Assembly: GCA_021735655.1 (NCBI GenBank)
Contig: JAIPGM010000005.1
Span: 45,461 to 109,460 of the forward strand
Source: Candidatus Omnitrophota bacterium
Lineage (GTDB): Bacteria; Omnitrophota; Gorgyraeia; Duberdicusellales; 4484-171
Length of the DNA stretch: 64,000 nt
Direction of reading: 5' to 3'
A program made the translations under genes and the position numbers. A model generated the notes under the pieces. The model made no database searches, had not been told where the DNA came from, and saw only the letters and a program-made list of their open reading frames with translations. Shown here in pieces: positions 321 through 59,768 of this stretch (position 1 is the stretch's first letter; each line of letters opens with the position of its first letter).

Positions 321-1847
321 TTAAACGGGTAGAGTAAATATAAAACGGGAGCCTTTTCCTTCACCCTTAGAACTAGCCTCTATTTTTCCCTTATGTTCCT
401 GAATGATATCTTTACAAATTGCAAGGCCCAGCCCAGTTCCTTCAACTTTTCCGCTTCTGGCTGGTTTAATTTGCTCAAAGGAATGAAAAAGTTTTGGAAT
501 ATCATTTTTCTTTATACCGATTCCGGTATCAAAAACTTCAACTTCGATACTATTGTCTATTTTTCTGGTAACTACAATAACTTCGCCTTTTTTGGTAAAT
601 TTAATCGCATTACTGACTAAGTTGCTGATAACTTGACTAATCCGATCCTTATCAAACCTTGGCTTAGGTAAATCCTGACCAAGCTTTAAGCTAAACTGCA
701 AACCTTTACGCTCAGCCAAAGGTTGCATTATTTCATAAACATCCCTGACAACCTCATTGACATCGTCCTCTTTAAGCCTAAGCTCCATCTTGCCGGCTTC
801 CAGCTTTTGAAATTCTAAAACATCATTAATCAAACGAGCTAGACGATTAACGTTCTTTTTGGCCATCGAGAGAAGGTTCTTTTGCTCAGTGTTTGTATCT
901 CCGGCCAACCCATCGAAAACTATACTAATGCTGGTTTTAATTGCCGCCAAAGGTGTCCGCAGCTCATGAGAAACCATTGAAGTTAGTTTTGACTTATATT
1001 CCACAGCCTCGCGTAACTTTTCTTCAACTCTTTTACGTTCGCTAATCTCTTTTTTAAGTTCAAGAGTACGCTCATCGACTAATTCTTCAAGATGATCCTG
1101 ATATTTCTTTAACTCATCGGTCATCGTATTAAACAAAGAAGCCAAATCGCCGATCTCGTCATTGCCCTTGACCTCGGTATGACGTCCAAATTCCTTATGA
1201 GAAATAATATATCTAATAGCTCCCAACAGCTTCGAAATCGGAACAATAACAATCCTAGAAAGGCTCTGATAAAATAAAAATATACAAAAACCTAAGGCTA
1301 ACAGTAAAACCAAAAGGTTTTGAGCCCGCATTTTTCTTATTTTACTATTTATAATTTCTTGTTTTATCCCAACATTGATCGTCCCGATAACCTCTTCGAA
1401 CCAAGGAATTGGAATAATTGACTCATAATACTTACCAATAACCAAAGTCCTCCGTTGGGAAGTTTTTAACGGATAGAGGTCACCGTATTTACCTTTGTCA
1501 TAAATACTACTAAAAAAAGGAGATTTAGCATGGTATAAAATCTTTCCATCCCGATCAGCAATAAAGCAATAATCAATGCCTTCATTTGCAAATAAAACAC
1601 TCTGCAAATATTCATCCATACCCGAAAATTCATCGAGCGAAAAATAACGTAAATTATTGTGTACAGTCCGACGCAAAGCCTTACCAACCGCATAAGATTT
1701 TTCCTCCAAGGCTTCTTTATAAGCTACTTTAAAAGAAAAAATGGTAATCAATGAATTAGCAGCTACCGCTACAACAATAACTAAAAGAATAACCGAAAAT
1801 AGCTTGGTTTTGACACTTATATATTTCTTCTCTGATTTTTTATTCAT
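321..1847 (-). CDS. Sensor histidine kinase (TM - HAMP-like - HisKA - HATPase_c)
   Basis: N-terminal TM helix. H-box MVSHELRTPLAAI. N, G1 and G2 boxes (NLVSNAIKFT, DTGIGI, GTGLGLAICKDII). 4-nt overlap with the upstream binding-protein gene. Confidence 0.9.
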   Translation of the reverse strand: MNKKSEKKYISVKTKLFSVILLVIVVAVAANSLITIFSFKVAYKEALEEKSYAVGKALRRTVHNNLRYFSLDEFSGMDEYLQSVLFANEGIDYCFIADRDGKILYHAKSPFFSSIYDKGKYGDLYPLKTSQRRTLVIGKYYESIIPIPWFEEVIGTINVGIKQEIINSKIRKMRAQNLLVLLLALGFCIFLFYQSLSRIVIVPISKLLGAIRYIISHKEFGRHTEVKGNDEIGDLASLFNTMTDELKKYQDHLEELVDERTLELKKEISERKRVEEKLREAVEYKSKLTSMVSHELRTPLAAIKTSISIVFDGLAGDTNTEQKNLLSMAKKNVNRLARLINDVLEFQKLEAGKMELRLKEDDVNEVVRDVYEIMQPLAERKGLQFSLKLGQDLPKPRFDKDRISQVISNLVSNAIKFTKKGEVIVVTRKIDNSIEVEVFDTGIGIKKNDIPKLFHSFEQIKPARSGKVEGTGLGLAICKDIIQEHKGKIEASSKGEGKGSRFIFTLPV

Positions 1848-3043
1848 TTAACTATATTTTCTCCGGACATTTCTATATATTCAACCGGAACTTTAATTCC
1901 GAACTCCTCAGCTTTACGCAAATCAAAAGCAAAACCATTATTCTTCGGCCATTCTGGATATATCTCTTTGATTGATCTACCTTCGAATAGCTCTTTAATC
2001 ATTCTGGCAGCTTGGTGGCCCATGCTTCGGTTAGAAGGATATACAACCATAGTCGCTCCCCAGCCTTGCATAACCGACTCCTTTCCTAGACCAATCAAAG
2101 GCTTAGTCGCGTTTTCATAAACCATACGACAAAAATACTCCTGCACCCCCATCTGATCATTAGGGGCCAAGAAAACATCAACTATCGGATCAAGTTCTAA
2201 AACAAACCTCTTAGCTGCTTCAGCCATATATTTGCTTCCTTTTTCGCCAACAACTAAAGGCACTGAACGAAAAATAATCTTAAAATTCTTAAACTCAAGA
2301 TTAGTTTTAAAAAGCTCCTCGGCCCACTTACGATAACTCCTTGACTGAGGCATATCAGCATAAATAAGACCAATAATTTTTGCCTTAGGCATTAACTCTT
2401 TGATAAATTCAAAACGGGTCGCAACTCTTAGAGGGTAATGGACTCCGGTAAAATTATACTTAGGCGGCGCATCAAAATCTTCAATTACTCCAATTCCAAC
2501 TGGATCGGTATTAGCAGCAAAAACAGCTACTTGATCCTTGCCTAAAAGTACATTTTTAGCAGCAACGGTCATCACTGTACCATTAATAAAAATAATATCA
2601 TAATTGTTCGGTAACTGTTCCTTGAGAATCGCCTCGCCTTTTTTTATATCATTTTCAATGACAAAGTAAGCCAGGCTTAAATTGCCCCCTTCTCGATAAC
2701 CCCAATAACTGAGACGTTCAAGCATAGCTTCCCTTACCTCTTTATAGGGCTCTCCGGTTTGAGAATCCAAAATAAGCAGTTTAAAATTTCGGGAAGAATT
2801 TTTAGCCACCGCTGGCTGATTCTCGGTAAATAGTGCGGTTTCCTCAACTCGATCAGAATTAGTACAGGAAATAATTAGGCCTAGGCAAACAAAAATAAAC
2901 GACCTTAATAATAAATTTAAAAAATTAACACCTTTCATCTTATGGTGATATTTTACCATAAACCATAAGACACAAAAACAAAAAATCCCCACCTTTTTTA
3001 AGGTGGGGATAGCTTGCTTAATTGTTCCTTCAGCCCAATTCAA
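1844..3043 (-). CDS. Periplasmic substrate-binding lipoprotein (ABC-type periplasmic component-like), co-transcribed with the sensor kinase; true start probably near 2938 (MKGVNF..LIISC lipobox)
   Basis: Internal Met is followed by a hydrophobic stretch and a Cys lipobox. The protein is a mixed alpha/beta periplasmic-binding type. Its stop overlaps the kinase start (ATGA). Confidence 0.5.
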   Translation of the reverse strand: MNWAEGTIKQAIPTLKKVGIFCFCVLWFMVKYHHKMKGVNFLNLLLRSFIFVCLGLIISCTNSDRVEETALFTENQPAVAKNSSRNFKLLILDSQTGEPYKEVREAMLERLSYWGYREGGNLSLAYFVIENDIKKGEAILKEQLPNNYDIIFINGTVMTVAAKNVLLGKDQVAVFAANTDPVGIGVIEDFDAPPKYNFTGVHYPLRVATRFEFIKELMPKAKIIGLIYADMPQSRSYRKWAEELFKTNLEFKNFKIIFRSVPLVVGEKGSKYMAEAAKRFVLELDPIVDVFLAPNDQMGVQEYFCRMVYENATKPLIGLGKESVMQGWGATMVVYPSNRSMGHQAARMIKELFEGRSIKEIYPEWPKNNGFAFDLRKAEEFGIKVPVEYIEMSGENIVK

Positions 3044-3052
3044 GGACTAAGG

Positions 3053-4228
3053 TTATTTCCCTAAGTTAATCGCTCTGACCTTTACAACACCTTCAATCTT
3101 AGAAAGAGCTTTTATAGTCTCCTCCTTAGGTTCATCTGAAGCATCGATAATCGTACAAGCATAGCCGGCTTTACTCTTATTTAACATCTCAACGATATTA
3201 ATATTGGCTTTAGCTAAAATCGTTGAAACCTGACCAACCATATTCGGAATATCTTTATTCATAACTATCAACCGGTGACTAGAATTTTGCTCTAATTTAC
3301 AGTCAGGAAAATTAACTGAATTCTTAATAACCCCCCGCTCAATGAAATTACGCAACTGCTTAACAACCATTACTGCGCAATTAGTTTCGGCCTCTTGGGT
3401 TGAAGCACCAAGATGAGGTATGGCTATTACCTTATCCATGTTAAGTAGTTCATCATCAGGAAAATCAGTTACATATCTCTCAACTATACCGTCTTTGATT
3501 GCTTTAGCTAAATCATCATTGTTTACTATTCCACCACGGGAAAGATTTAAAATCCTGACACCTTTTTTCATCCGAGAAAACTTCTCACTATCAACCATTC
3601 CTTTAGTTGCATCAGTCAAAGGCGTGTGCAGCGAAATATAATCTGCTTCAGCCATAAGTGCATCTAAACCATTAGCTCGTTTTACCTGTCTTGAAAGACC
3701 CCAAGCCGACTCAACCGAGATAAACGGATCATAGCCAACAACCTCCATACCCAAATCTAAAGCAGCATTGGCCACCATAACCCCGATTTTACCTAAGCCA
3801 ACAATACCGAGAGTTTTGCCCATAATCTCAAAACCGGCAAAATCTTTCTTATTCTTTTCTACCGAGGTCGGAACTTCAGTTCCCTTTCCCTTAAGTGATT
3901 CAGAAAAGGCAATACCCTTAGAGATATCCCTTGAAGCTAGCAGCAATCCGGCTATAGTCAACTCTTTTACGGCGTTAGCATTGGCTCCCGGAGTATTAAA
4001 AACAACCACCCCTCTTTCTGAGCACTTATCAATCGAAATATTGTTGGTTCCGGCTCCAGCCCGACCCACCGCAAGAAGAGATTTCGGTAACTCCATATCA
4101 TGCATCTTAAAGCTTCGGAGGATTATTGCTTCGGGATTAGTAACTTCAGTACCAATCTCATATTGATCAAGCGGAAAAAGGGCTAAGCCCTCTGTTGAAA
4201 TTTTATCTAGTTTCATTACCTTATACAT
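3053..4228 (-). CDS. serA: D-3-phosphoglycerate dehydrogenase (2-hydroxyacid dehydrogenase with C-terminal ACT domain)
   Basis: NAD-binding motif GLGKIGVMVANAALDLGMEVVGYDPF. Catalytic His/Glu region (IPHLGASTQEA). C-terminal ACT-like region. The longer ORF to 4318 would overlap serC. An AGGAGG sits just before the ATGATG at 4228. Confidence 0.85.
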   Translation of the reverse strand: MYKVMKLDKISTEGLALFPLDQYEIGTEVTNPEAIILRSFKMHDMELPKSLLAVGRAGAGTNNISIDKCSERGVVVFNTPGANANAVKELTIAGLLLASRDISKGIAFSESLKGKGTEVPTSVEKNKKDFAGFEIMGKTLGIVGLGKIGVMVANAALDLGMEVVGYDPFISVESAWGLSRQVKRANGLDALMAEADYISLHTPLTDATKGMVDSEKFSRMKKGVRILNLSRGGIVNNDDLAKAIKDGIVERYVTDFPDDELLNMDKVIAIPHLGASTQEAETNCAVMVVKQLRNFIERGVIKNSVNFPDCKLEQNSSHRLIVMNKDIPNMVGQVSTILAKANINIVEMLNKSKAGYACTIIDASDEPKEETIKALSKIEGVVKVRAINLGK

Positions 4229-4247
4229 CATATCCTCCTTTAGTTGC

Positions 4248-5330
4248 TTATCGGTTTGTTTTTTCGAATTCTTCCATAAGTTCAACAAGTTTTTTAACCC
4301 CTTCAACCGGCATGGCATTGTAAATACTAGCTCGCATGCCGCCGACAGTACGGTGTCCTTTCAAAGTCTTAAAACCTTTAGCTGAAGCCTCCTCGATGAA
4401 TTTCGCATCTAGCTCCTTATTCCCGGTAACAAAAGGGACATTCATCAAAGAACGGTTTTCTTTTTTAACCGGACTGCTGAAAAGTTTTGACTGATCTAAA
4501 TAGCTATAGAGAATTTCTGCTTTTTCACGATTGAGCTTTTCGATTGCCGCCAGTCCTCCTTTTCCCTTAATCCAGGCAAAAACTAACCCGGCTATATAGA
4601 TTGAATAGCAGGGCGGTGTATTGAACATCGAACCGGCGTCAAGATGAGTTTTGTAATTAAGCATCGCCGGAATACTGTCTGGAGCCTGGCCTACTAAATC
4701 TTCACGGATGATAACCAAGGTAACACCGGCTGGTCCGATATTTTTCTGAGCTCCGGCAAAGATAACTCCAAATTTTGAAACATCAATTGGCTCAGACAAA
4801 ATATTAGAAGACATATCGGCGATTAAAGGAACTGCCCCTGTATTAGGGATCTTTTCATAAACTGTTCCGTAAATCGTATTGTTAGTTGCGATATAGAAAT
4901 AGTCAGCGTCTTTAGAAAAATCATCAGAATTAAGTTCCGGGATATAAGTAAAATTCTTATCTTCGGAACTGGCAACAACCTTAACCGCCCCCTGTTTCTT
5001 AGCTTCGGCTATTGCTTTCTTGGTCCATTGGCCGGTATGCACATAGTCGGCTTTTTTATTTTTGACCATTAAGTTCAAGGGAATCATCGAGAACTGTAAA
5101 CTTGCCCCGCCTTGCAAAAACAAAACCTTATAGTTATCCGGAATAGCCATGATTTCTCGTAGGGTAGCTTCGGCCGTCTCGATAATACCTTTAAACTCCT
5201 TGCCGCGATGAGAAAGTTCCATTACACTCATACCACTTCCTTGATAATTAAACATCTCTGCGGCAGCTTTCTTCAAAACTTCCTCTGGCAAAACTGCTGG
5301 TCCAGCACTAAAATTGTATACCCTCTCCAT
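4248..5330 (-). CDS. serC: Phosphoserine aminotransferase
   Basis: N-terminus MERVYNFSAGPAVLPEEVL is typical of SerC. PLP-fold length of 360 aa. Immediately followed by serA. Confidence 0.9.
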   Translation of the reverse strand: MERVYNFSAGPAVLPEEVLKKAAAEMFNYQGSGMSVMELSHRGKEFKGIIETAEATLREIMAIPDNYKVLFLQGGASLQFSMIPLNLMVKNKKADYVHTGQWTKKAIAEAKKQGAVKVVASSEDKNFTYIPELNSDDFSKDADYFYIATNNTIYGTVYEKIPNTGAVPLIADMSSNILSEPIDVSKFGVIFAGAQKNIGPAGVTLVIIREDLVGQAPDSIPAMLNYKTHLDAGSMFNTPPCYSIYIAGLVFAWIKGKGGLAAIEKLNREKAEILYSYLDQSKLFSSPVKKENRSLMNVPFVTGNKELDAKFIEEASAKGFKTLKGHRTVGGMRASIYNAMPVEGVKKLVELMEEFEKTNR

Positions 5331-5332
5331 GG

Positions 5333-5950
5333 TTACCCCCCTTTAAGTGATGCGGCAACAAACCGCAAAGCATTAGTAAAATCCATATCTAAATACATAA
5401 TATTTTCTGGCACTATAATTTTAATCGCTGAAAAATTTAAAATACCACGCACCCCGGCTTTGATTAACTTATCGGCTACGGCCTGAGCTGAGCCTGCCGG
5501 AACAGCGATTATTGCCAACTCAATGTTTCGCTGTTTAATAATACTTTCTAATTGGTTATCGCCAAAAACATCGATAGCAGTGCGAATTCTTTCAATCTTA
5601 TTAATACTGCAATCAAACCCAGCCACAATTTCAAATCCATCCTCCTGAAACTTTTCATAATCTAGGAGAGCGCTCCCGAGACGTCCCAAGCCAACAATAC
5701 AGGCCTTGCGCTTCTGATTTAAATTAAGCTTACGCCCCAACTCTTGCTTTAAACCGCTAACTTCGTAGCCTTTTCGAGTGTAACCGGTAAGGCCTAAAGA
5801 GCTAATATCTTTACGCACCGTATATTCAGTAGCACCAATAGCTTTAGCCAGATTCAGAGAAGATACAAAATCAACTCCTTGCTTTTCTAAGGTGTTTAAA
5901 TATCCAAAAATCTTACAAATTCGCTCAAGACTATTATCTGATAAACTCAT
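5333..5950 (-). CDS. rex: Redox-sensing transcriptional repressor Rex
   Basis: N-terminal winged-helix region (YTVRKDISSLG) and a C-terminal Rossmann/CoA-binding motif CIVGLGRLGSAL. Length 205 aa. Lies 2 nt upstream of serC. Confidence 0.85.
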   Translation of the reverse strand: MSLSDNSLERICKIFGYLNTLEKQGVDFVSSLNLAKAIGATEYTVRKDISSLGLTGYTRKGYEVSGLKQELGRKLNLNQKRKACIVGLGRLGSALLDYEKFQEDGFEIVAGFDCSINKIERIRTAIDVFGDNQLESIIKQRNIELAIIAVPAGSAQAVADKLIKAGVRGILNFSAIKIIVPENIMYLDMDFTNALRFVAASLKGG

Positions 5951-5973
5951 ATATGTTCCTTAACCTTATTTAA

Positions 5974-5987
5974 GTGAAATAATTCAC
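5974..5987. promoter_or_regulatory. Candidate Rex operator (GTGAA-N4-TTCAC) upstream of rex-serC-serA
   Basis: AAGTGAAATAATTCACTA matches the Rex consensus TTGTGAA-N4-TTCACAA. It lies 24 nt upstream of the rex start. Confidence 0.55.
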
Positions 5988-6107
5988 TATTATAGCTAAT
6001 TTATACCCTATATTACCCTGAATGTCAAGATATTTTATGGTATTTTTTAGGCTAACTAATAAATGTATATTTTTCAATCGATTATCAGTATGATTCCTAT
6101 AATATTA

Positions 6108-6121
6108 GTGAAATTTTTCAC
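6108..6121. promoter_or_regulatory. Second candidate Rex operator (GTGAAATTTTTCAC)
   Basis: Second GTGAA-N4-TTCAC palindrome in the same intergenic region. Confidence 0.45.
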
Positions 6122-6144
6122 CCCATTATCAAAAAAAGGGGCGA

Positions 6145-7551
6145 TTATTGCCGGCCAGACAAAAATACAGTTTCGTCTTTTGCCGGAATACTGACTTTAA
6201 TATTGTGCTTTTTCAGGTTAGTTCTTAATACCTCAGACTGCTCTTCGTCACCATGAACAATAAAAACCTTCTTTAACTTACCTTGGCATTTTTTAACATA
6301 TTCGACCAGACCATTTTTATCCGAATGTGAACTAAAAGCATTTAAAGTAACTACTTCGGCATTTAATTTATAAGGATGACCAAAGATCTTAACTTCCGGG
6401 TTTCTTTCAACAATTCTTCGGCCTAAGGTATTTTTAGCCATATAGCCAATTGCAATTATGGTGTTGTGTGGATTTTCAATATTGTTTTTTAAATGGTGAA
6501 GTATTCGACCATTTTCGCACATTCCGGAAGCTGATATTATTATCATCGGGCTTTTCTTTTCATTAAGCTTCTTTGATTTGTTGACATCAGTTATATAGGT
6601 AATGCTGCCATAACCTAAAGGATCCTCTTCTCTTTGAAAAGCCTGCTGAGTGATATCATCGAAATACTGCCAATTTTCCCGAAATACTTTAGTCAAATTC
6701 ACCGCCAGGGGACTATCAACATAAATTGGAATCTTTTTTATCTTTTTACGCTTTATCAACTCACTGATAAAAAATACAATTAACTGTGTTCTTTCTAAAG
6801 CAAAAGAAGGGATGATAATTTTACCGCCCCGCTTAATCGTACGATTTACAGCAGCAGCCAGCTCTTCCTCAGCATCTTCGATACTTGAGTGACTTCTCCC
6901 ACCATAGGTACTTTCAATTATAAGGTAATCTATATCTTTGGGAACTTCCGGATTTCTAAGTAAGGGCATGCCATAGCGGCCTAGGTCTACGGCATAAGCT
7001 ATGCGCATATTGCCATGAGTAGTTTTAATATCAAGGGTTGGTACAGTTGAACCAAGAATATGCCCGGCTTCAAAAAAAGTTAAATCTATCTCTCTGGCCA
7101 AAGGAAATTTTTGATGATATTCCAAAGATCTAATATATTTAAGTGACTTCTCAGCATCTTTTTTAGTATAAAGTGGTTCCCTTGGCGGGAGATGTTTACG
7201 ACGGTTAATCTTATTTACATAACGAACATCTTCTTCCTGGACATAACCACTATCAGCAAGCATGTAATGCAATAATTTCTTAGTGACCGGAGTAGCAAAT
7301 ACATGTGAACGATAGCCGTTTTTTATTAAAGTCGGGATATTACCACAATGATCGATATGAGCGTGGGAGACCACGCAGGCCTTTAAGCTTTGTGGGTTAA
7401 AGGAAAACTTTGAATTAACTTGGTAGGTTTCATCCCGACGACCATGGAAAAGGCCGCAATCAAGCAATATACTGGAATGATCTGTAGATACAAGATGCTG
7501 CGAGCCGGTAACTGTACGAGCTCCGCCGCAGAATTTAATCGTTACTGTCAA
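6145..7551 (-). CDS. Metallo-beta-lactamase fold hydrolase, beta-CASP RNA-metabolising family
   Basis: HAHIDHCG (HxHxDH) motif, with further His/Asp motifs and a beta-CASP-like C-terminal half. 468 aa. Confidence 0.7.
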   Translation of the reverse strand: MTVTIKFCGGARTVTGSQHLVSTDHSSILLDCGLFHGRRDETYQVNSKFSFNPQSLKACVVSHAHIDHCGNIPTLIKNGYRSHVFATPVTKKLLHYMLADSGYVQEEDVRYVNKINRRKHLPPREPLYTKKDAEKSLKYIRSLEYHQKFPLAREIDLTFFEAGHILGSTVPTLDIKTTHGNMRIAYAVDLGRYGMPLLRNPEVPKDIDYLIIESTYGGRSHSSIEDAEEELAAAVNRTIKRGGKIIIPSFALERTQLIVFFISELIKRKKIKKIPIYVDSPLAVNLTKVFRENWQYFDDITQQAFQREEDPLGYGSITYITDVNKSKKLNEKKSPMIIISASGMCENGRILHHLKNNIENPHNTIIAIGYMAKNTLGRRIVERNPEVKIFGHPYKLNAEVVTLNAFSSHSDKNGLVEYVKKCQGKLKKVFIVHGDEEQSEVLRTNLKKHNIKVSIPAKDETVFLSGRQ

Positions 7552-19474: not shown

Positions 19475-19505
19475 ATTTAATTTTTATCCTCTTTTGACCT
19501 CACTG

Positions 19506-42813: not shown

Positions 42814-42852
42814 TTTATATTACCGACCCCAAAAAGCCAACAAGAATTTACC

Positions 42853-43197
42853 TTGCTAAATCCTAGATTGCTAACTAAAATATATCTGATGTCAGATTAT
42901 TTAAAGGTTTTAATCCTTTCAGTTCTGGTTCCTTTTGCCTGCAGCTTCTACCGGCCACTGAGGTTTTATGAAAATCTAAAAGCCTTGCTTGTTAGTGTAG
43001 GCTTAGTGGTCCTGATTTTTGGAGCCTGGGACATCTTAGCTACAGCCCGCGGCCACTGGCATTTCAATCCTCAAGGAGTAGGATCGCTAAAAATAATTAA
43101 CTTACCCCTAGAAGAAGTATTATTCTTTATAGTTATTCCTTTTTGCTGTATTTTTACCTGGGAAGCAATAAACTATATTAAAAATAAAATCCAATGA
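42853..43197 (+). CDS. Lycopene cyclase domain protein (heterodimeric cyclase subunit, CrtYc-like)
   Basis: ~110-aa, 3-TM protein with the PLEEVLFFI motif of the lycopene cyclase domain. Overlaps its partner. Confidence 0.65.
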   Translation: MLNPRLLTKIYLMSDYLKVLILSVLVPFACSFYRPLRFYENLKALLVSVGLVVLIFGAWDILATARGHWHFNPQGVGSLKIINLPLEEVLFFIVIPFCCIFTWEAINYIKNKIQ

Positions 43198-44338: not shown

Positions 44339-44348
44339 ACCCGGTGGT

Positions 44349-45389: not shown

Positions 45390-45411
45390 TTATTTATGCT
45401 ACCATATAAAC

Positions 45412-50139: not shown

Positions 50140-51295
50140 TTGTTGTAGAATGGACACTTACTCAAAACAACACTTTTTGCCATGAAAGGAGCTTTTGTAT
50201 CATGAACCACACCCAATCTTATACCATAAACGGCTGTATATTCCAAGAGTTTTTACTGCTTCTGGGCAGGGTTGTCCACAGTGACCTGATCCGGCAGATG
50301 GAGTACCTGAAAGTGGAGAATGAGGTTCTGCGGACCAAATGCCCGAAACGGATAACCACAAGCCCGGCCGAGAAACGTAAGCTCATCAAATACGGCCTTG
50401 CCTGCAGGGGCAGAATAAAAGGCATTATATCCATCGTAAGCTATTCTACCTTCAGGCGCTGGGTAAATGGCGATATCCGCAATAAATATAAGCCTTCCAA
50501 GCAAGGCACGCCCAGAAAGACCACACAGGAAATAATAGACCTTATAGTACGCCTTGCCCGGGAAAACTGCGACTGGGGCTATGGCCGGATAATGGGCGAG
50601 TTAAAGAAACTAAACATCATCAGACTGTCCCGGAATACCATAAAGGCCATAATGCGCCAGAACGGCCTTGATCCGGCACCAATAAGGGCCCATGACTCAT
50701 GGGATGCCTATATAAAGCGCCATTTCGAAACCTTATGGGCTTGTGACTTCTTTACCAAGACCATCTGGACAGCCATGGGGCCCAAGCTATTCCATGTATT
50801 ATTCTTCTTGAATATCAGAACCCGGAAGGTCCATATAGCCGGTATAACAGAAAAACCTAAAAAGGAATGGGTGATGGAAGCGTCAAAGACGGTATCGTTT
50901 CTATTCAAAGATAAGACCAAGAAGCTCCTTATTCGAGACGGTGATGCTAAATTCCCGAAAGAGTTCAATAGCCTTTTCAAAGACTGTAATACAAAAGTCA
51001 AAAAGATACCGCACCGGTCACCGAATCTTAACCCTTATGCCGAAGGCTTCGTGGGAACCATAAAAAGGGAATGCACGGATCACTTCTTCGTGTTCGGCGA
51101 ACGTCACTTCGAATACCTTGTCCGGGAATACGTCAAATACTATAATACCAAACGTCCGCATTCCGGCCGGGATAACCGGCCCCTTGAATATCATTCGGAG
51201 AAATCAACCGGCAAGCTCAAATGCGACTCACGCCTGGGTGGGATGATTAAGCATTATTATTGGGGGTAACGGAAGGTCACAGTAACTCATCCTCA
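50140..51295 (+). mobile_element. IS element (IS481/IS3-like, single DDE transposase ORF); ends approximate
   Basis: Transposase ORF with a local rise in GC relative to flanks. Terminal inverted repeats could not be defined by eye. Confidence 0.4.
50202..51269 (+). CDS. DDE transposase with N-terminal HTH/leucine-zipper and rve integrase core domain
   Basis: AAAGGAG RBS. rve-type motifs (..WACDFF.., RDGDAKF, NTKRPHSG). 355 aa. Codon usage and GC differ from neighbours. Confidence 0.8.
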   Translation: MNHTQSYTINGCIFQEFLLLLGRVVHSDLIRQMEYLKVENEVLRTKCPKRITTSPAEKRKLIKYGLACRGRIKGIISIVSYSTFRRWVNGDIRNKYKPSKQGTPRKTTQEIIDLIVRLARENCDWGYGRIMGELKKLNIIRLSRNTIKAIMRQNGLDPAPIRAHDSWDAYIKRHFETLWACDFFTKTIWTAMGPKLFHVLFFLNIRTRKVHIAGITEKPKKEWVMEASKTVSFLFKDKTKKLLIRDGDAKFPKEFNSLFKDCNTKVKKIPHRSPNLNPYAEGFVGTIKRECTDHFFVFGERHFEYLVREYVKYYNTKRPHSGRDNRPLEYHSEKSTGKLKCDSRLGGMIKHYYWG

Positions 51296-52101
51296 TTAAT
51301 GTAACGAAATATAGCAGTGTCATTCGAAGCTTTCATTGCGTATTCGTTTTCTAATCGATATCGTGCCACACACTGGAGAAAAGAACCAATGTCATGAAGA
51401 TGGCGAACTTGATCCCATGAATCCAACTTTAAATCAATGCCATAACCAGGCTTTCTAACAATATGAGCAATGCTGTGTCTAATCGAATCCTTCACGTATT
51501 CTCCGGCACTCACATTATTAGTATTTTGATCATGAAGAAAAATTCTATTGGCTGTAAAACGAGTTATAGTTTCACGCATATACTCTAACTCTCGAGGCCA
51601 ATTACCAACAAGATTATTAATATAAGCAACGGCCACACTTTCATCTGCGCTGGGATATACCAAACAATGCCAGAAAAAAAGAATTTGCAAATAAATATTA
51701 TTTGAGCTATTTGCTTCCCGATATAAACGGGCTAACTGGATTTGCTCCGGTGTACTCAAAAGAGATATTGTATAGAATTCGTCCATGGATTCACTGGCAT
51801 TTATCGACCTTTTGACGGAAAAACGAATGTTAACCTTGTTTAGTTTAGCGTCTACCTGCGAACTTATCCCGGAGTGCGTTATAACCCGAGCATTATTAGC
51901 AAAGGTAAAAGCGGAAAGAAATTCAGTCATCAGCTCAAACATCTTCGGTTGGCTACTGCCCTTGGGAATCTTGCATACCAGATCGTCAGTTTCATTGCTC
52001 TTATAATGAGGCACATATTTAAAATCAACATCCTTATAACGAAAATAATATACATCCTTGCGGAAAGCTATCGATATGTCTACTCCGATTGCATAAATCA
52101 T
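51277..52101 (-). CDS. Hypothetical protein, fourth gene of the SIR2 operon
   Basis: 274-aa ORF, 34 nt after the preceding gene, same strand. No recognised motif. Confidence 0.45.
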   Translation of the reverse strand: MIYAIGVDISIAFRKDVYYFRYKDVDFKYVPHYKSNETDDLVCKIPKGSSQPKMFELMTEFLSAFTFANNARVITHSGISSQVDAKLNKVNIRFSVKRSINASESMDEFYTISLLSTPEQIQLARLYREANSSNNIYLQILFFWHCLVYPSADESVAVAYINNLVGNWPRELEYMRETITRFTANRIFLHDQNTNNVSAGEYVKDSIRHSIAHIVRKPGYGIDLKLDSWDQVRHLHDIGSFLQCVARYRLENEYAMKASNDTAIFRYINEDELL

Positions 52102-52135
52102 ATTAATTCCATGATATAAAGGTTGTTTTCAAAGT

Positions 52136-53029
52136 TTATTGTTCGATAGAAGGCTTTTTGGCTTTAAAATAGTTCAGTAATAAGTAATAACGCAGTGCCA
52201 ATTTTTTATCTCCGGCTTCTTTTCTTTTTTTGTATTCTGATTCCACAAATTTAGATGCTTGGCCAAGTCCTTCTTCAAATTTCTTTGCCTGTTCTGAGTT
52301 TTCATTTATACTTTGTAAGAATTCCTTACCGAGATAATCTAATATTGACACACCATCTAAATCCCGGACTATCATTTTTAGACAACTCGTTGCCATAACC
52401 TTGCACAGCTCGACATCCTCATTGGTTTGTGCGGGTAATTGCGGATGCTTATTTGCTAACGTCGCCAAATAATTTAACAGTTCCCGCCCGATAACTATTC
52501 GTGGATATTCCGCAATTTTGCTTTCCAATGCATATGCCTTATATAAGGCAAGTCCATAAATTTCGCCATTAACCAATTCAGTTCCCAAGCCCACTTCTAT
52601 ACCGGCTCGAAATGCCTTTTTCATTGCCAAAGATAAAACCATCATGCCTCCACACGCTAACAGTGTGCCAAAGACACCATTAATTGCATGTGAGTGATAT
52701 TTATCCGTATGCAGACAAACGTAAGCTTGAATACAATCTGAAAAACGTTGATGCTTCAAATTGCTTTTTAGCATTTCTTTGAATTGCTCCATTTTTTCCG
52801 GAGGCACTTTAACCGAAGGCTCCCTTTCTTCTGTATAAGCATCAAAGAAATCCTGGAATCCATTGCGCAAAGTTTCGACGAACATCGCTGTTTGTTTATG
52901 GGCTTCTACTAAGCGTGGATGATTATCTTCAAGGGATTGGCCTTCAAGCCCTTGAAAAGCTTCTTTCTGGCCTAAAATATCGATAAAAGCTACAAGATAA
53001 TAATAGTAATTTATGTTATCTTTTGCCAT
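52136..53029 (-). CDS. Nucleotide-cyclase/GGDEF-like palm-domain protein (third gene of the SIR2 operon)
   Basis: YLVAFIDILGQKEAF resembles the metal-binding strand FaDIvGFT of class III cyclases. FRAGIEVGLGTELVNGEIYG..AYALES resembles RiGIhtGpvvaGviG..VNtAsRlES. The central segment ACGGMMVLSL occupies the position of a GGDEF-like turn. Confidence 0.45.
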   Translation of the reverse strand: MAKDNINYYYYLVAFIDILGQKEAFQGLEGQSLEDNHPRLVEAHKQTAMFVETLRNGFQDFFDAYTEEREPSVKVPPEKMEQFKEMLKSNLKHQRFSDCIQAYVCLHTDKYHSHAINGVFGTLLACGGMMVLSLAMKKAFRAGIEVGLGTELVNGEIYGLALYKAYALESKIAEYPRIVIGRELLNYLATLANKHPQLPAQTNEDVELCKVMATSCLKMIVRDLDGVSILDYLGKEFLQSINENSEQAKKFEEGLGQASKFVESEYKKRKEAGDKKLALRYYLLLNYFKAKKPSIEQ

Positions 53030-53045
53030 AATACGTCTCAGCCCA

Positions 53046-55826
53046 CTACTTGTTATATTTCTTATAAATTTCTGTTAAAAACTCAAACCCTGCTCTAGCA
53101 TATTTATCACAAATAGAATTTGCAATTTCATTTTTAAAACCAGCTAAATAAATTTTTTCAACAATAGATTGAATATTTTCTTGCTTATACCACGGAATAC
53201 TTTTTTCTATCATTATTAAAAATACATTCCCTACGTCTTTTGGGTTAACGTCTGCTAATTTATCGAAATACTCAAGTAAGAATGAACTATGGTAACGCTC
53301 TTCTACATATTTAATTGACTGCTTCAACCAATCCACCTGCTCTGTTTGTAATTGATCAAGAAATACCGCGAGTAGATTCAAATCGGAAAGGATGTCTTTG
53401 TTTTTGTCTTCTTTTCCTTTTGTTCTGTTAAAACAATACCGCCAAAATTCAAATATTCTTTCCTTTTGGTCGCAATCTAATTGCGCATCCCTATGAGCCC
53501 AAAAAAGACTGATCACCTCTTCAATATCATTTGGGTCCCATTTTTCTAAAATATATTTAAACAAACTGTCTTGGCCATCTATAGTCTCTTGCCCCCTTAA
53601 GTAGGATATTGTTACATTTTCTACAATTCGTCTTTTCGCTTGATCGTTCGAAAATTTTGTATCAAGCGCACGCCTTAGATGACCGTTATCTTTTAATAGA
53701 TTGTAGATAACAGCATAAACGGTATTGACATAAGAATATCCTTGCATAGCGCATCGCCAATGCTTTTCTTCAGCAGGAAAGATATTATTAATATTCGAAG
53801 TAACCCAATTTTTCTGCAAATAATACAAATTAGGCAAATAAGCACCAGATAGGCTTGAGAATTCGAAGTTTCCTTCCTTTGTTCTTTCAATCTCCCGACT
53901 AAATAGTGGCGCTACTGTCTTCCAGAAATCCTCTTTTTCTTTTATACCTTTATCAGGCAATTTTTCGAAATCACGGTACCGCCTAAGGACATAACTTTTA
54001 AAACTCTCTAGCACATGACCCTTTGTGGTATTAATCGCTTCGGTAAGCGCGTCTTCATCTTTACCACTTGCTGTTGATTCTTGTTTATCAAGCAGGGTCC
54101 GAATAATATTGTCTATTCTCTTATAATTATTCTCAGTAAGATTCAAATCGTCATTCTGAATCCCATTCTTGATCAAATCCGAGATAGCCGCAGGAATCCA
54201 ACTTTTCTTAGGTTCAAGGGGAAACTGACTCTCCTTCTCTTTCCCGTCCCACAATACATCATCGCAGACGATAGCTTGACAAAAGTCTAAAATCTTGTCC
54301 CAATTAATCTCTTTTTTATCCCGCGCAAGTTCTTCAAACGCCTCTATTACATAATACCAATATTCGTAACTAGACTTCTTGAACTCAATGAGACAATTTT
54401 CAAAAAATCCCTGTTTTAGCTTAATCGCTTCTTTTAAAGACTGGCCTGCTTCTCGTATCGCAGTTTCTCCAAAGCGGTTTTTACCTTTGAAGTTACCAAG
54501 GAAAGTAATAATTTCGTTAATGCTTCCCTGTGCCAACAATTCACTAGCTGAAAATAGAGACTCATCCCCCCATGATACAGGTCCAATATAACTTAAGAAT
54601 TCTGGATGTTCCGGCTTATAATCAATCCCTTTAAAATATTTCTCCTCTACATCATTCGGTATTGAATATCCCGAAACTTTAATAGCATATAGCCATCGCC
54701 TGCGAAGTATCGCATCCAATTTTTCCTTATCAACATCTTTTCTCCAGTCCCCGGACAACTGAACAACATCATTCATCAATGAATTCTGAAGATCTTGAGA
54801 AAATTGTTTAAAGTGGCGTGTTATCAGCTTATACAGTTCGTGGTGATAATTACTTTCGAGGAAAATAGTTTTACCGGTATCGCGAATGATTTTTTCACTA
54901 GTGGTTTTGTATTTATCAAACAACTGTCCTGTAATATACAATGAAAAACGTCTAATAATATGCTTGTCTGACCTAAAGCATGATTCAATAATAGTAGACG
55001 CTTCCTGTGAGGACGCATAGGCAAGAAACACATCTCTTAATCCAGAAACTAAAATATGTCGATATTCATCTCTGCTTATATTCTGTTCGCTATCTTCGAT
55101 TGCTGGACGCCACATATAAGAATATGCGTCATCCTTTTCCGTCACAATATGCTCAATTTTCTTCTTAAGAATTTCGACAATTTCGGCACCATATTTTTCG
55201 CCCAAATGCGTAGCATTGATCTTAAATAATTCCTGCAAACTATGGGCACCAAGGCTATGCCGATTTTCAATCCTGATGAAGTCAAGAATGATTTCTATAA
55301 GTCGGCTAACTTTTTGTAACTCCTCTGGTTCTTTCAATAAGTTTGGCAAAAGGGTTTTGCCAATCTCCAGCATTACCATTGAGGCATCAAACTTACTGTC
55401 AAGCCAATCAGCAATAAGCTCAATATCTTTTATTTCCACGACATCTGACGGCAAGAGTGCCATGATTTTAACAAAAGACTGCCACGTACGCCAATTATCT
55501 GCTTTTTTGGTCTTATCATCGGGACGAGTCACCTCACGAATAATTGACATTAACTTTCGGACATGCTCTTTATTTCCAGATTTCGAGCATTCTTTGGATA
55601 CCTTTTCTAAATATGTCAAAGCAGGCCAATATGGAATTGAGAAGAAACCTTTGTTTTTTTCCGACTCTACTGGAGAAGGATTATTTGTTGAACCAAAATA
55701 ACCATGATCTTTAAGCAAAGTAAGATATTCAACCTTCGACAATTCATTAAAGACCTGTGCTCGGTATTCAGCCCCTTTTGCCATGTAATCTAAAAGACTT
55801 TTTTGCTCTGGAGTTATATTCGTCAT
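53046..55826 (-). CDS. Large (926 aa) all-alpha-helical repeat protein, second gene of the SIR2 operon; no NTPase motifs
   Basis: No Walker A/B. Helix-rich composition throughout. Start overlaps the SIR2 stop (ATGA). Confidence 0.5.
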   Translation of the reverse strand: MTNITPEQKSLLDYMAKGAEYRAQVFNELSKVEYLTLLKDHGYFGSTNNPSPVESEKNKGFFSIPYWPALTYLEKVSKECSKSGNKEHVRKLMSIIREVTRPDDKTKKADNWRTWQSFVKIMALLPSDVVEIKDIELIADWLDSKFDASMVMLEIGKTLLPNLLKEPEELQKVSRLIEIILDFIRIENRHSLGAHSLQELFKINATHLGEKYGAEIVEILKKKIEHIVTEKDDAYSYMWRPAIEDSEQNISRDEYRHILVSGLRDVFLAYASSQEASTIIESCFRSDKHIIRRFSLYITGQLFDKYKTTSEKIIRDTGKTIFLESNYHHELYKLITRHFKQFSQDLQNSLMNDVVQLSGDWRKDVDKEKLDAILRRRWLYAIKVSGYSIPNDVEEKYFKGIDYKPEHPEFLSYIGPVSWGDESLFSASELLAQGSINEIITFLGNFKGKNRFGETAIREAGQSLKEAIKLKQGFFENCLIEFKKSSYEYWYYVIEAFEELARDKKEINWDKILDFCQAIVCDDVLWDGKEKESQFPLEPKKSWIPAAISDLIKNGIQNDDLNLTENNYKRIDNIIRTLLDKQESTASGKDEDALTEAINTTKGHVLESFKSYVLRRYRDFEKLPDKGIKEKEDFWKTVAPLFSREIERTKEGNFEFSSLSGAYLPNLYYLQKNWVTSNINNIFPAEEKHWRCAMQGYSYVNTVYAVIYNLLKDNGHLRRALDTKFSNDQAKRRIVENVTISYLRGQETIDGQDSLFKYILEKWDPNDIEEVISLFWAHRDAQLDCDQKERIFEFWRYCFNRTKGKEDKNKDILSDLNLLAVFLDQLQTEQVDWLKQSIKYVEERYHSSFLLEYFDKLADVNPKDVGNVFLIMIEKSIPWYKQENIQSIVEKIYLAGFKNEIANSICDKYARAGFEFLTEIYKKYNK

Positions 55827-56812
55827 TTGTTTAATAACCGCCTTATGACATCTTTTTCTTCTTCAAAATTAGGCTTATTGACTTTAGCTTTTAGAACAGC
55901 TGCCCATTTAATAATGATCTCTTCCAAATGAACGTGTCCTTTTTTGTCGATGTTATAGTCAATCAATTTTATGCCACAATGTCTTTCAAAATATCCCTTA
56001 AGATGCTTATAGGCAGCGTTATCCCTGCTCATACGTGGATATAGCCAAAAATGCCTTGGTTCTTCAACCCTCGGGGAATTGCTTTTTCTAACAATGAACT
56101 CCAATATTTCTTCTTCTTCCAGTCCATATCCAATAAACAAGACAATCTTCCGCGAAAACAAATCATTTAAAAAATCTATAACAAATCTATTCATATAATG
56201 ATCCATATAATCTCTGGTGGTCATAATCATGGTTTCTTTGCTTTTTACGCTTCCATGAAGATGAATAACCGAGCCTGGCTGATCTAGTCGCGCAGATGTT
56301 AAATCCTCTTTCCTGAAAAATACAGAAGTAGGAGAGGTAATTCCAGAGTTTCCCAGAGAACTGTCATCACCTTTTGAACTTAATATTTTATTATCAGCGA
56401 GCTTATCAAGGCAATCATCATAATTAGTCGTTACAAAAACAGTCCCTATCGAATACAAAGCATCGTATATCGCCGTTTTTACCGCTATTTCTTTATCCTG
56501 AAAAATTAACCTTCCATAATCATAATCGATGCCTTTTGCTTTGTAGTTATCAAAAAAAATAGAGAGTTGAATCTTGGGGTTTAAGGCTAAGAGAGAAGAT
56601 TTTTCTGAATATTCGATGTGCCCTTCTTTATAGAGAATGTCAATCGCCCGTCTTCCAAGCTCAACCCATGAAGGGTACCCCAATAATCTAGATACTCCAT
56701 TGCCGACAAACAAAATTAATTTGCCGTTTTGAGCTGCGTCGATAATAGACGAATGATCTTCTATGTTGGGAATAATTCTTGACGCAGGATTTTTATCTTC
56801 TATCGTCATCAA
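55823..56812 (-). CDS. Stand-alone SIR2_2-family (defence-type sirtuin-like NADase) domain protein
   Basis: Motifs in the canonical order: KLILFVGNGVSR (GAGxS equivalent), VFVTTNYDDCLD, VIHLHGSV (catalytic His), IVLFIGYGLEE. 329 aa. Confidence 0.75.
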   Translation of the reverse strand: MMTIEDKNPASRIIPNIEDHSSIIDAAQNGKLILFVGNGVSRLLGYPSWVELGRRAIDILYKEGHIEYSEKSSLLALNPKIQLSIFFDNYKAKGIDYDYGRLIFQDKEIAVKTAIYDALYSIGTVFVTTNYDDCLDKLADNKILSSKGDDSSLGNSGITSPTSVFFRKEDLTSARLDQPGSVIHLHGSVKSKETMIMTTRDYMDHYMNRFVIDFLNDLFSRKIVLFIGYGLEEEEILEFIVRKSNSPRVEEPRHFWLYPRMSRDNAAYKHLKGYFERHCGIKLIDYNIDKKGHVHLEEIIIKWAAVLKAKVNKPNFEEEKDVIRRLLNK

Positions 56813-57157: not shown

Positions 57158-57931
57158 TTAGCACTTTAAACATTTTTCTTTTTTAGTCGACTGCTGTTTT
57201 GAATGTATTCGTTCCCGCGCCATCCGACAATACTCTGGAGAAATATCAATGCCGATATAATTTCGTTTAAGGTCCCTTGAAACAACGGCTGTCGTTCCCG
57301 AGCCCATAAAAGGATCAAGTACAATTTTAGCATTGGTTGATGATACAATTCTTTGAATCAAAGATACAGGAAATGGAGCAGGGTGCCCATTTTTCATTTC
57401 CTGCGTAAATTCCCAAACATCACCGTAGGCATTCGCTTTTTTTGCCAATTTGAAATCCGGTTTAGCTATCAAGTATATAACCTCATAAGTAGGCAAGAAA
57501 TACCCTGCGTTAAAATTAATTCCACCTTTTCTTTTCCAAACAATAATCTGGCGCACAGGAAATTTACTGACAATGTCATGCCGGTCTTGAAGCAAGCCAT
57601 TTTGTACCCGCCATTTATGATTATAAAAAATTGCTCCGTCATTTTTTATTAATCTATACATTTCATCGAGACATTTAATTTGCCATGACACATATTCTTC
57701 ATGAGGCATACAGTCATCATGATGACTGTATCCGTTAATCAAAGCGGCTCTCGACCATTTACCACCGCGACCATCTTTCATACCGTTTCCTGTAGAATTC
57801 TTAAGATTGTAAGGCGGAGATGTCACAGCCAAATCAATCGATTCGTCCGGCATTGCTTTCATTACTTCTAAACAATCACCGCAAATGATCTTATTCAGAT
57901 AATCCTTAGGAAATTTTAGTTTAGCACTCAT
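57158..57931 (-). CDS. DNA amino-methyltransferase, beta-class (motif IV SPPY N-terminal, motif I FMGSGTT C-terminal); N4-cytosine or N6-adenine
   Basis: LAVTSPPYNL near the N-terminus. DPFMGSGTTAVVS near the C-terminus. Confidence 0.8.
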   Translation of the reverse strand: MSAKLKFPKDYLNKIICGDCLEVMKAMPDESIDLAVTSPPYNLKNSTGNGMKDGRGGKWSRAALINGYSHHDDCMPHEEYVSWQIKCLDEMYRLIKNDGAIFYNHKWRVQNGLLQDRHDIVSKFPVRQIIVWKRKGGINFNAGYFLPTYEVIYLIAKPDFKLAKKANAYGDVWEFTQEMKNGHPAPFPVSLIQRIVSSTNAKIVLDPFMGSGTTAVVSRDLKRNYIGIDISPEYCRMARERIHSKQQSTKKEKCLKC

Positions 57932-57955
57932 TTCATTCTTTCGATAACAGGTTAA

Positions 57956-58762: not shown

Positions 58763-58775
58763 AATCTCCCTTTCA

Positions 58776-59768
58776 CTAATACCTTTTTTGGGGCGGCTTC
58801 CAGAAATCTAAAAGATATTCAAAAGTTACACCCATTGTTATATAATTGCTTGGCCAGCCAAAAATACCAATGCCATTGACCACATTGGTACGATCCCATA
58901 TTATGACATTTCGTAATTCATAGCCTCTCTTACGGAGTTCCTCAATCAACGAAACGTGAATTGTAATGCGCCGGTTTTCCCACCACATATCCGGAACATT
59001 AATAACGCAATGTGCTTTCTCTCTAAGCAGAGGAAGTAACCCTTCAAAAATATCTCCCATTGCCGTCGTATAGGAATCAATAGCCATTGTGCCTAGATCA
59101 CGCACATCTTGAGAATATTGCTCAACTTTACCCAATTGCTTGTTGTTCCTGTCGCGTCGAGATTTGTTTTGACGGGATCTATTTAAAAGATTTGCGTAGG
59201 GCGGAGATGTCCAGATCAAACTTACAGTATTGGGGGAGAGATATTCTGAAATATTTCTGGCGTCATCCTGAATGGCCATCTGAGCACATGCATTAAACAG
59301 GTTAGGATTCTTTTGGAGCCGCTTAACACATAACTCAATGTATTTTTTTTGGAGATCGAACCCAACGGCATTTCGGTTCAAATCAGTTGCGGCAATAAGT
59401 GATGTTCCACTTCCAACAAACGGGTCAATAACCAATTGTCCCTGATGTGTGAATAATTCGATGACTTTTTTTGCGAGGGATATTGGAAAAGTTGCAGGAT
59501 GAACAGATTTATCTCTTATATCGCGAGTTTCATAAAAAAACTGCCAAACTCCTATTTGGGATTTAAGCCAGTCCTTGGGGCCCATGCAATTAATATGTGT
59601 ATGGCCACAATTACATAAACGCTCGTGCGCCATACCTAGCTTTGTGCCATATAAAGAATCGCCTTCAAAAACGGCCAAGGCTTTTTGCTCTGTTTTACTC
59701 TTATCATTGTGACCCTGATCAATAGATCTTTTGTCAACCGCGCTATGACCAAAACTTTGATTTCCCAT
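58776..59768 (-). CDS. Second DNA amino-methyltransferase (motif I DPFVGSGTS precedes motif IV SPPY)
   Basis: DPFVGSGTSLIAATDL at ~aa 113. IWTSPPYANL at ~aa 187. 330 aa. Confidence 0.8.
   Translation of the reverse strand: MGNQSFGHSAVDKRSIDQGHNDKSKTEQKALAVFEGDSLYGTKLGMAHERLCNCGHTHINCMGPKDWLKSQIGVWQFFYETRDIRDKSVHPATFPISLAKKVIELFTHQGQLVIDPFVGSGTSLIAATDLNRNAVGFDLQKKYIELCVKRLQKNPNLFNACAQMAIQDDARNISEYLSPNTVSLIWTSPPYANLLNRSRQNKSRRDRNNKQLGKVEQYSQDVRDLGTMAIDSYTTAMGDIFEGLLPLLREKAHCVINVPDMWWENRRITIHVSLIEELRKRGYELRNVIIWDRTNVVNGIGIFGWPSNYITMGVTFEYLLDFWKPPQKRY

Follow-up and report, generated by a model that had tools for sequence, protein, structure and literature searches.

The 194-nt region at positions 5951-6144 of a 64,000-nt stretch of a Candidatus Omnitrophota metagenome-assembled genome (MAG), a stretch that we call the window and whose G+C content is 38.6%, is very probably the control region of a Rex-repressed, NADH-responsive and autoregulated rex-serC-serA operon. 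In this operon, the gene for the redox-sensing repressor Rex would be expressed together with those for phosphoserine aminotransferase (SerC) and 3-phosphoglycerate dehydrogenase (PGDH, SerA), an aminotransferase and a dehydrogenase that catalyse the first two steps of serine synthesis. The region carries two predicted Rex operators, and these predicted boxes and the rex-serC-serA gene order are conserved jointly across at least four phyla, in genomes that number in the dozens. Rex binding, the NADH response, co-transcription, looping between the operators and the physiological logic set out below are what we infer from sequence comparison.

The proximal predicted operator, GTGAAATAATTCAC (5974..5987; GTGAATTATTTCAC on the coding strand), and the distal, or auxiliary, predicted operator, GTGAAATTTTTCAC (6108..6121), are exact matches to GTGAANNNNTTCAC (GTGAA-N4-TTCAC), and these are the only two matches in the window, both falling within the 194 nt upstream of rex. 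Across 100 dinucleotide-preserving shuffles of the window, the motif was matched 0.06 times on average and no shuffle reached two matches, while allowing one mismatch in the real sequence added only two sites elsewhere, which is not above chance. We also scanned the window with a position weight matrix (PWM) trained on sites of related genomes only, with the window's own two sites left out; the consensus of this clade-specific matrix is ATTAGTGAAATATTTCACTAAT. The proximal and distal operators scored 26.1 and 21.4 bits, respectively, and no further Rex site in the 64 kb rose above noise, the next best site scoring 8.7 bits and the maximum of 50 random windows being 18.2 bits.

A sequence-only reading of this DNA had previously placed Rex-type palindromes at 5974-5987 and 6108-6121 and had suggested a PWM search; both positions are exactly borne out as the sole exact matches in the window, and the matrix singled out the same two sites. 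The N4 spacing that it assigned to the Rex consensus agrees with the published generalised operator, TTGTGAANNNNTTCACAA (Ravcheev et al. 2012, cited after PMC6391272 and PMC5317091). Its further claim, that both sites fit TTGTGAA-N4-TTCACAA, holds for the GTGAA-N4-TTCAC core, which is exact in each box, and fails at the outer flanks, as neither box matches the full 18-bp consensus and their flanks read aaGTGAA..TTCACta and taGTGAA..TTCACcc. The base preceding GTGAA is A in 61% and T in 17% of Omnitrophota-like sites and is T in 75% of those from distant relatives. The fifth half-site position (GTGAA / TTCAC) is 76-89% conserved across loci, and both the central N4 and the flanks of the boxes are A/T-rich.

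The two boxes are arranged around a predicted sigma-70-type promoter on the minus strand (6000..6028), which we read as a TTGACA -35 element (6028-6023), a 17-nt spacer and a TATAAA -10 element (6005-6000). This promoter matches 11 of 12 consensus positions, is preceded by an A/T-rich tract just upstream of the -35 element, and retains its TTGACA in the alignment of relatives; our automated promoter scan missed it because the scan demands T as the last -10 base. Starting 12 nt past the -10 element, the proximal box covers approximately +6 to +20 of the predicted transcript and lies 23 nt before the rex ATG (5950), which a predicted AAGGA ribosome-binding site (5957..5961, minus strand) precedes by 6 nt. 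The distal box lies 134 bp upstream of the proximal box, measured centre to centre, about 80 nt upstream of the -35 element and 23 nt past the stop codon of an upstream beta-CASP gene.

The first gene of the unit, rex (5333..5950, minus strand), encodes a 205-residue protein that is, judging by its domains and conserved residues, a bona fide Rex in which the DNA-recognition and NAD(H)-sensor residues are kept. The N-terminal part of the protein is a winged-helix DNA-binding domain (PF06971; residues 4-50, scoring 36.6 bits against a cut-off of 27), the C-terminal part is a Rossmann domain that binds NAD(H) (PF02629; residues 78-175, 57.2 bits against 22.3), and the whole passes three NCBIfam Rex models (NF003995, 179.9 bits, cut-off 126; NF003994, 171.7, cut-off 130; NF003996, 163.4, cut-off 138). 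Its nearest solved structures are those of T-Rex, the T. aquaticus protein (3IKT and 1XCB), which match it over nearly the full length with E-values of about 1e-31. An alignment of 32 relatives shows no variation at residues R10, R46-K47-D48, G87-L-G-R-L-G92, A94, Y98 and D190-F191, and the equivalents of the T. aquaticus GxGxxG motif, Ala94, Tyr98 and Asp188-Phe189 are all present and align with T-Rex, in which Ala94, Tyr98 and Phe189 are the residues that discriminate between NAD+ and NADH (PMC8063818). A protein annotated in a Candidatus Omnitrophica MAG shares 100% identity with the Rex of the window, whose closest homologues (65-84% identity) are from Omnitrophota. Among distant family members encoded in the same module, a degenerate NAD(H) site is found in the Rex proteins of loci L079, L080 and L082 (Rex at 3501-4133), L084 and L090: that of L079 has GLDKTG instead of GxGxxG and lacks the Tyr98 equivalent, those of L084 and L090 carry Ser or Asn in place of the Tyr98 equivalent, and one protein, P0221, has no Rossmann-domain Pfam match. 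Rex in these lineages may sense something other than NADH.

Directly downstream lie serC (4248..5330, minus strand; 360 aa), whose product passes the equivalog models for 3-phosphoserine aminotransferase (NF003764, 565.9 bits, cut-off 253; TIGR01364, 526.4 bits, cut-off 443.6), and serA (3053..4231, minus strand; about 391 aa), which starts at 4231 or 4228 after an AGGAGG ribosome-binding site and encodes a predicted NAD-dependent D-3-phosphoglycerate dehydrogenase of the E. coli type with a C-terminal ACT domain. SerA has the Pfam domains 2-Hacid_dh and 2-Hacid_dh_C, and its best NCBIfam models are PGDH models, yet it scores under their cut-offs (TIGR01327, 281.2 bits against 454; NF008759, 212.8 against 404). 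Its top 25 PDB matches are all PGDH, and its alignment with 1PSD and 1YBA covers the whole length and takes in the ACT domain. These structure matches, the ACT domain and the conserved synteny with serC make it probable that serA encodes PGDH. The possibility that the two enzymes are instead a serine-pyruvate aminotransferase and an NADH-consuming hydroxypyruvate reductase was considered and ruled out, given that SerC passes the phosphoserine-aminotransferase equivalogs and that SerA resembles ACT-domain PGDH.

With a gap of 2 nt between rex and serC and of 16 nt between serC and serA, and with all three genes on the minus strand, rex-serC-serA appears to form a compact, presumably co-transcribed unit with a promoter in front and a terminator behind. 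The latter is a strong predicted intrinsic terminator 43 nt past the serA stop codon (2975..3010, minus strand), found by terminator scan and by inspection, with an 11-bp stem that includes 6 G-C pairs (ATCCCCACCTT-AAAA-AAGGTGGGGAT, then TTTTTTGTTTT); the scan detected no terminator-like site with a T-run between the operon promoter and position 3010. A search of the operon and its leader against Rfam at E<=1 returned no riboswitch, T-box or other RNA element, only a chance match to LhrC (25 bits against a gathering score of 110). The gene order that the sequence-only reading had given, with serC 2 nt after rex and serA next, is thereby confirmed. Its broader proposal, which placed the NAD+-dependent step of serine biosynthesis under redox control together with rex autoregulation, gains support at the sequence level from the presence of a true Rex, boxes at the promoter, a compact unit and joint conservation.

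We examined this conservation in loci retrieved by Rex sequence alone, nine from reference genomes and 80 from metagenomes, which together gave 86 unique Rex loci; the peptide patterns used for retrieval pick out this Rex subfamily and not Rex proteins at large, and our counts use only loci with enough flanking sequence (60 for serC, 41 for serC and serA together and 64 upstream regions). A serC gene lies within 600 nt downstream of rex in 56 of the 60 informative loci, and serC and serA both follow rex in 38 of 41. The four serC exceptions comprise three variants (L015, L031 and L034) and one locus, L032, whose contig begins inside rex. Locus L034 has serA and no serC match, L031 (3489-6544) has the order rex-serA-serC, and L015 (4128-5019) has about 900 nt without an open reading frame (ORF) of at least 100 aa between rex and a 360-aa ORF of serC size. 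The spacer between rex and serC is at most 40 nt in half of 73 loci, 41-100 nt in 17 and more than 100 nt in 20.

The boxes are retained along with the genes. Counting as a box any GTGAA-N4-TTCAC sequence with at most one mismatch and at most 300 nt upstream of rex, we found two boxes in 45 of the 64 upstream regions, one in 16, three in one and none in two, such that at least one box precedes rex in 62 of 64 loci; the expectation is 0.011 per 300 nt, from a background of 3.5e-5 per nt. By contrast, no box was found in the rex-serC spacers of 73 loci or in serC-serA spacers, and the 15 box matches elsewhere in about 396 kb of flanking DNA each contain a mismatch, none being exact. In all loci examined, the motif co-occurs with rex and not with any CRP gene. 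A proximal-type box lies 18-26 nt before the rex ATG in all Omnitrophota-like relatives, and in close relatives the distal box lies about 126-149 bp upstream of it, whichever gene stands upstream; both boxes keep their window positions next to a different upstream gene while the surrounding spacer diverges.

The distant loci, in which Rex is 33-46% identical, come from MAGs of candidate division KSB1, Spirochaetota and Chitinispirillia; the module was also found on a 4.8-Mb metagenomic contig, and a search for cultured carriers returned only MAGs among the named relatives. The nearest relative (L002, CAZFML010000016.1) has beta-CASP, Rex, SerC, SerA and ABC-substrate-binding genes syntenic with those of the window and 73-86% identical to them, and its label, 'uncultured Planctomycetia bacterium', looks doubtful given this Omnitrophota-like synteny. 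In about 18 distant loci, Spirochaetota-like and others (L038, L046, L049, L051, L056, L068, L073, L077-L080, L082, L084-L086, L088 and L091), a divergent gene of the DUF1015 family (PF06245; about 408 aa; at 3614-4840, minus strand, in L091) shares the box-bearing intergenic region. The KSB1 locus L043 has a DUF1015 gene downstream of serA (5274-6332), and the window has none. This gene may be a fourth co-regulated member of the module.

The geometry of promoter and boxes is likewise consistent across loci. In 57 of 64 loci, the proximal box has beside it a strong sigma-70-type promoter, which we define as one matching at least 9 of 12 consensus positions. Most have a -10 element that abuts or overlaps the box, usually ending 0-5 nt before it; in nine loci the box sits within the promoter spacer and contributes part of the -10 element; and in the window, as in its nearest relative, the box is placed 12 nt downstream of the -10 element. 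A repressor bound at any of these positions blocks RNA polymerase. Distal boxes showed no such association, with a mean best promoter score of 8.03 against 7.98 in shuffled sequence and a score of at least 10 in 1 of 46 scanned intervals, whereas proximal boxes gave 34 of 46. The idea that a second promoter lies there was accordingly rejected. A role for the distal box as a roadblock or terminator element of the upstream gene was also set aside, as no terminator was detected there and the box is kept next to divergent upstream genes: the gene upstream of the box region is co-directional in 19 loci and divergent in 15, and the distal box is found with both.

Measured centre to centre, the two boxes lie 43 to 156 bp apart across loci. 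A periodogram of these spacings over periods of 8-14 bp peaks at 10.5 bp with a phase of +0.04 turn (R=0.65, n=46), although the loci are related and a p-value computed on all of them is inflated for that reason. Removal of the dominant 132-140 bp class leaves the peak at 10.45-10.5 bp (R=0.66, n=29). When only unique spacings are used R is 0.52, a value that 9 of 5000 random sets reach with a phase as near zero, and of 14 spacing classes, 11 deviate by no more than 0.2 turn from an integer number of turns (binomial p=0.004). Locus L091 holds the most compact version of the two-operator design, with two identical perfect boxes, TTGTGAAATATTTCACA, that lie 41 bp (3.9 turns) apart at 4937-4991 and bracket a TTGACA -35 element. 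Together, the spacing data make helical phasing of the two operators likely, not proven, and such phasing would in turn make cooperative binding on the same face of the DNA likely.

We propose the following mechanism for the operon. Rex is known as a dimer, and where NADH is low relative to NAD+, NAD+-bound Rex dimers would occupy both GTGAA-N4-TTCAC operators. Because the proximal operator lies just downstream of the -10 element and over the transcript start, its occupation would block RNA polymerase. The distal operator, approximately 13 helical turns upstream, would most likely boost repression through same-face cooperative binding, either by looping or by raising the local concentration of repressor. 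When NADH rises, Rex would leave the DNA, and Rex, phosphoserine aminotransferase and PGDH would be made together from a transcript that stops at the terminator at 3010-2975; Rex made from that same transcript would then exert negative autoregulation. The PGDH reaction has a poor equilibrium, and since the step requires NAD+ and is held back when NADH/NAD+ is high, the cell would make more of the enzyme at exactly the time when the driving force is poor. Compensation of this kind seems to us the most economical explanation of the physiological logic, and it is also the least certain step of the proposal.

Several other explanations of these observations can be weighed against Rex control of the whole operon. 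Chance matches in A+T-rich intergenic DNA might be suspected from the base composition of the window and from the A/T-rich central N4 and flanks of its boxes, yet the two matches against 0.06 expected, unequalled in any shuffle, and the retention of both positions in dozens of orthologous loci while the spacer around them diverges effectively refute this idea on conservation grounds. Binding by a different regulator that happens to recognize sites upstream of rex, such as a member of the CRP/FNR family (TGTGA-N6-TCACA), is very improbable. The two consensus sequences have GTGA-N6-TCAC in common, and the outer TT/AA that the Rex consensus calls for is missing from the window boxes. These fit the core of a CRP-type site and do not have its leading T or trailing A. 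The fifth half-site position is specified by the Rex consensus and not by that of CRP, and its 76-89% conservation argues for Rex. So do the invariance of the Rex DNA-recognition residues R46-K47-D48 in the family and the association of the motif with rex, which spans at least four phyla and holds in 62 of 64 upstream regions, with no exact box elsewhere in the flanking DNA. Autoregulation of Rex via a box upstream of rex is also documented in several organisms (PMC6391272, PMC5317091).

It is somewhat less improbable, though still unlikely, that the boxes are genuine Rex operators that control rex only, with serC and serA expressed mainly from an internal, Rex-independent promoter and their adjacency to rex maintained by other selection. 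The spacers of 41-100 nt or of more than 100 nt in relatives, all without a box, would fit such an arrangement, as would the modest derepression of the aminotransferase/PGDH operon in a Caldicellulosiruptor bescii rex deletion strain (a table row of three values of about 0.6, which we take as log2 ratios; PMC6391272). In the window itself, however, the gaps are 2 and 16 nt, no terminator precedes position 3010, and the weak promoter-like matches on the minus strand inside rex are not above shuffled sequence (6 found against 3.9 +/- 2.1). Half of the loci likewise have a spacer of at most 40 nt, and without functional coupling it is difficult to account for the linkage of rex to serC-serA that is seen across phyla in 56 of 60 loci. 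A doubtful but more substantial possibility concerns only the distal box, which may act independently and not as a looping partner: it could be a roadblock to read-through, or it could serve as operator for a second promoter or for a divergent gene. This would be in keeping with the lack of a detected terminator in the stretch that separates the box at 6121 from the beta-CASP stop codon (6145) and with the divergent DUF1015 gene of the distant loci. Against it stand promoter scores at the distal box equal to those of shuffled sequence, the retention of the box with co-directional and divergent upstream genes alike, and a helically phased spacing to the proximal box that a lone site does not need.

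Taken together, we favor Rex control of the entire rex-serC-serA operon through both boxes, while acknowledging a number of points that weigh against it. These include the outer flanks of both window boxes, which deviate from TTGTGAA/TTCACAA, and a GTGA-N6-TCAC core that is also compatible with the CRP-type consensus. The rex-serC spacers of more than 100 nt in 20 of 73 loci leave room for internal promoters in those genomes, and read-through from the beta-CASP gene could add to expression of the operon. With regard to phasing, the most conservative analysis, a period-scanning permutation test on the 14 spacing classes, gives p of about 0.06, and the window's own spacing of 134 bp corresponds to 12.76 turns, about a quarter turn out of phase; moreover, we know of no evidence for the contacts between Rex dimers that looping would need. 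Finally, the physiological logic is not that of the textbook, since PGDH yields NADH whereas classic Rex targets consume it.

Going further, we tentatively raise the possibility that rex-serC-serA, joined in some lineages by the divergent DUF1015 gene, is an ancient and self-contained redox-compensation module of Omnitrophota, KSB1, Spirochaetota and Fibrobacterota. In such a module, a dedicated and mainly pathway-specific Rex subfamily would raise the NAD+-dependent serine pathway when the NADH/NAD+ ratio is unfavourable and would repress it by means of a loop between phased operators. If this is true, both the logic and the architecture would be undescribed for Rex.

Rex control of the operon would extend the reach of this regulator to serine biosynthesis in largely uncultured phyla without known transcriptional regulation. 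The link between rex and serCA is a structural one, with rex built into the operon, and its retention over at least four phyla suggests that selection strongly favours a match between PGDH and SerC levels and the NADH/NAD+ ratio. Rex classically derepresses enzymes that consume, and thereby re-oxidise, NADH, and the logic proposed here is the opposite of that textbook role. It would amount to a bacterial counterpart of the redox constraint on mammalian serine synthesis, which is limited by the NAD+/NADH ratio (PMC12247995). The phased dual operators lead to a concrete hypothesis that can be tested, namely that repression by Rex is cooperative or looped. In practical terms the value is modest and consists of improved regulon annotation in MAGs and a compact NADH-responsive promoter-operator cassette.

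The remainder of the window was surveyed for genes that might bear on this system or be of interest in their own right. No classic Rex target (adhE, ldh, hydrogenase, nuo or PFOR) was found in a Pfam survey of 30 of the approximately 40 large ORFs outside the rex neighbourhood, a result that is uninformative on the size of the regulon. The gene upstream of rex (6145-7551, minus strand) encodes a beta-CASP/MBL ribonuclease; its best NCBIfam model is that of the type VII CRISPR protein Cas14, far under the cut-off (380 against 800 bits), followed by archaeal aCPSF1, and it is most likely an ordinary beta-CASP RNase. Just past the operon terminator (321-2959, minus strand) are genes for an ABC-type substrate-binding protein (PF04392) and an sCache/HisKA sensor kinase; a substrate-binding gene likewise follows serA in the nearest relative, and nothing places these genes in the Rex unit. 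Further away, two tandem genes at 17558-21359 (minus strand) encode proteins of 638 and 617 aa, each with a GH130 mannoside-phosphorylase domain in its C-terminal half and an N-terminal portion of about 300 aa without a Pfam match. An isoprenoid, carotenoid or squalene-type cluster occupies 39709-47372, with genes for a flavin amine-oxidase-like desaturase, LytB/IspH, a squalene/phytoene synthase, a polyprenyl synthetase, a UbiA prenyltransferase and a Pyr_redox_2 oxidoreductase. The segment at 50202-59768 is a likely mobile or defence island, which encodes an rve_3 integrase (50202-51269, plus strand), a MauJ-like protein (52101..51277), proteins of 297 aa (53029..52136) and 926 aa (55826..53046) without a Pfam match, a SIR2_2-domain protein (56812..55823) and two N6/N4 DNA methylases (57931..57158 and 59768..58776).

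In the literature that we searched, we found no account of rex joined to serC-serA, of cross-phyla conservation of such an arrangement or of phased dual Rex operators, and nothing on Rex in Omnitrophota or on two-site cooperative binding by Rex. The nearest precedent is that of C. bescii, in which Rex binds upstream of the Athe_2126 operon in an NADH-sensitive manner in electrophoretic mobility shift assays (Sander et al. 2018, PMC6391272). That operon encodes a class V aminotransferase, a 3-phosphoglycerate dehydrogenase dependent on NADH, and a hypothetical protein (PMC6391272), and SerC and SerA are given as some of the best-conserved members of the Caldicellulosiruptor Rex regulon (Rodionov et al. 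2021, PMC8579813). The wiring described here, which the sequence-only reading did not know as standard, is consequently less unusual than it had seemed (PMC6391272, PMC8579813). As in C. bescii, a Rex operator would precede an operon for the aminotransferase and dehydrogenase steps of serine synthesis and Rex would regulate its own gene. The two systems differ in that the C. bescii target operon is tabled as three genes without rex, with no mention found of a link between the two (PMC6391272), whereas rex is the first gene of the operon in the window; in that the C. bescii aminotransferase is annotated as being of the alanine-glyoxylate type, whereas that of the window is a SerC equivalog; and in that the predicted C. 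bescii site is given a single distance of 88, which we take as nucleotides upstream, as compared to two operators in the window with a spacing phased across loci. The rex-led arrangement is conserved over Omnitrophota, KSB1, Spirochaetota and Chitinispirillia.

A rex-led operon is known from Streptomyces coelicolor, whose rex-hemACD operon and its ROP operator were reportedly described by Brekasis and Paget in 2003. There, a TGTGAA-N4-TTCACA palindrome at the promoter serves as the operator, from which Rex is released by NADH. The window shares with it an autoregulated operon, as predicted here, in which rex comes first and is followed by genes for biosynthetic enzymes; the pathway in S. coelicolor, an aerobic actinomycete, is that of haem, whereas that in the window is serine. 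A phased second operator is not known to have been reported for rex-hemACD. The concept of the ROP (Rex operator) is also treated in PMC5355995. When compared to the generalised Rex operator and the T-Rex/DNA complex (3IKT), the window system retains the GTGAA-N4-TTCAC core, its dyad symmetry, R46/K47 and the A94/Y98/F189 equivalents, and it differs in that Omnitrophota mostly have A (61%) before GTGAA and lack the outer TT/AA.

With respect to its architecture, the putative two-operator design resembles the dual-operator repression loops of lac, gal and ara, in which, as here, a primary operator lies at the promoter and an auxiliary one tens of base pairs to about 150 bp away, and the spacings among homologues here tend towards integral turns. 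Unlike in those systems, looping is not known for Rex. Overall, Rex operators, Rex autoregulation and rex-led operons are already established, and to these the present analysis adds a predicted three-gene module conserved over several phyla and a probable phased auxiliary operator, additions that we regard as moderately interesting.

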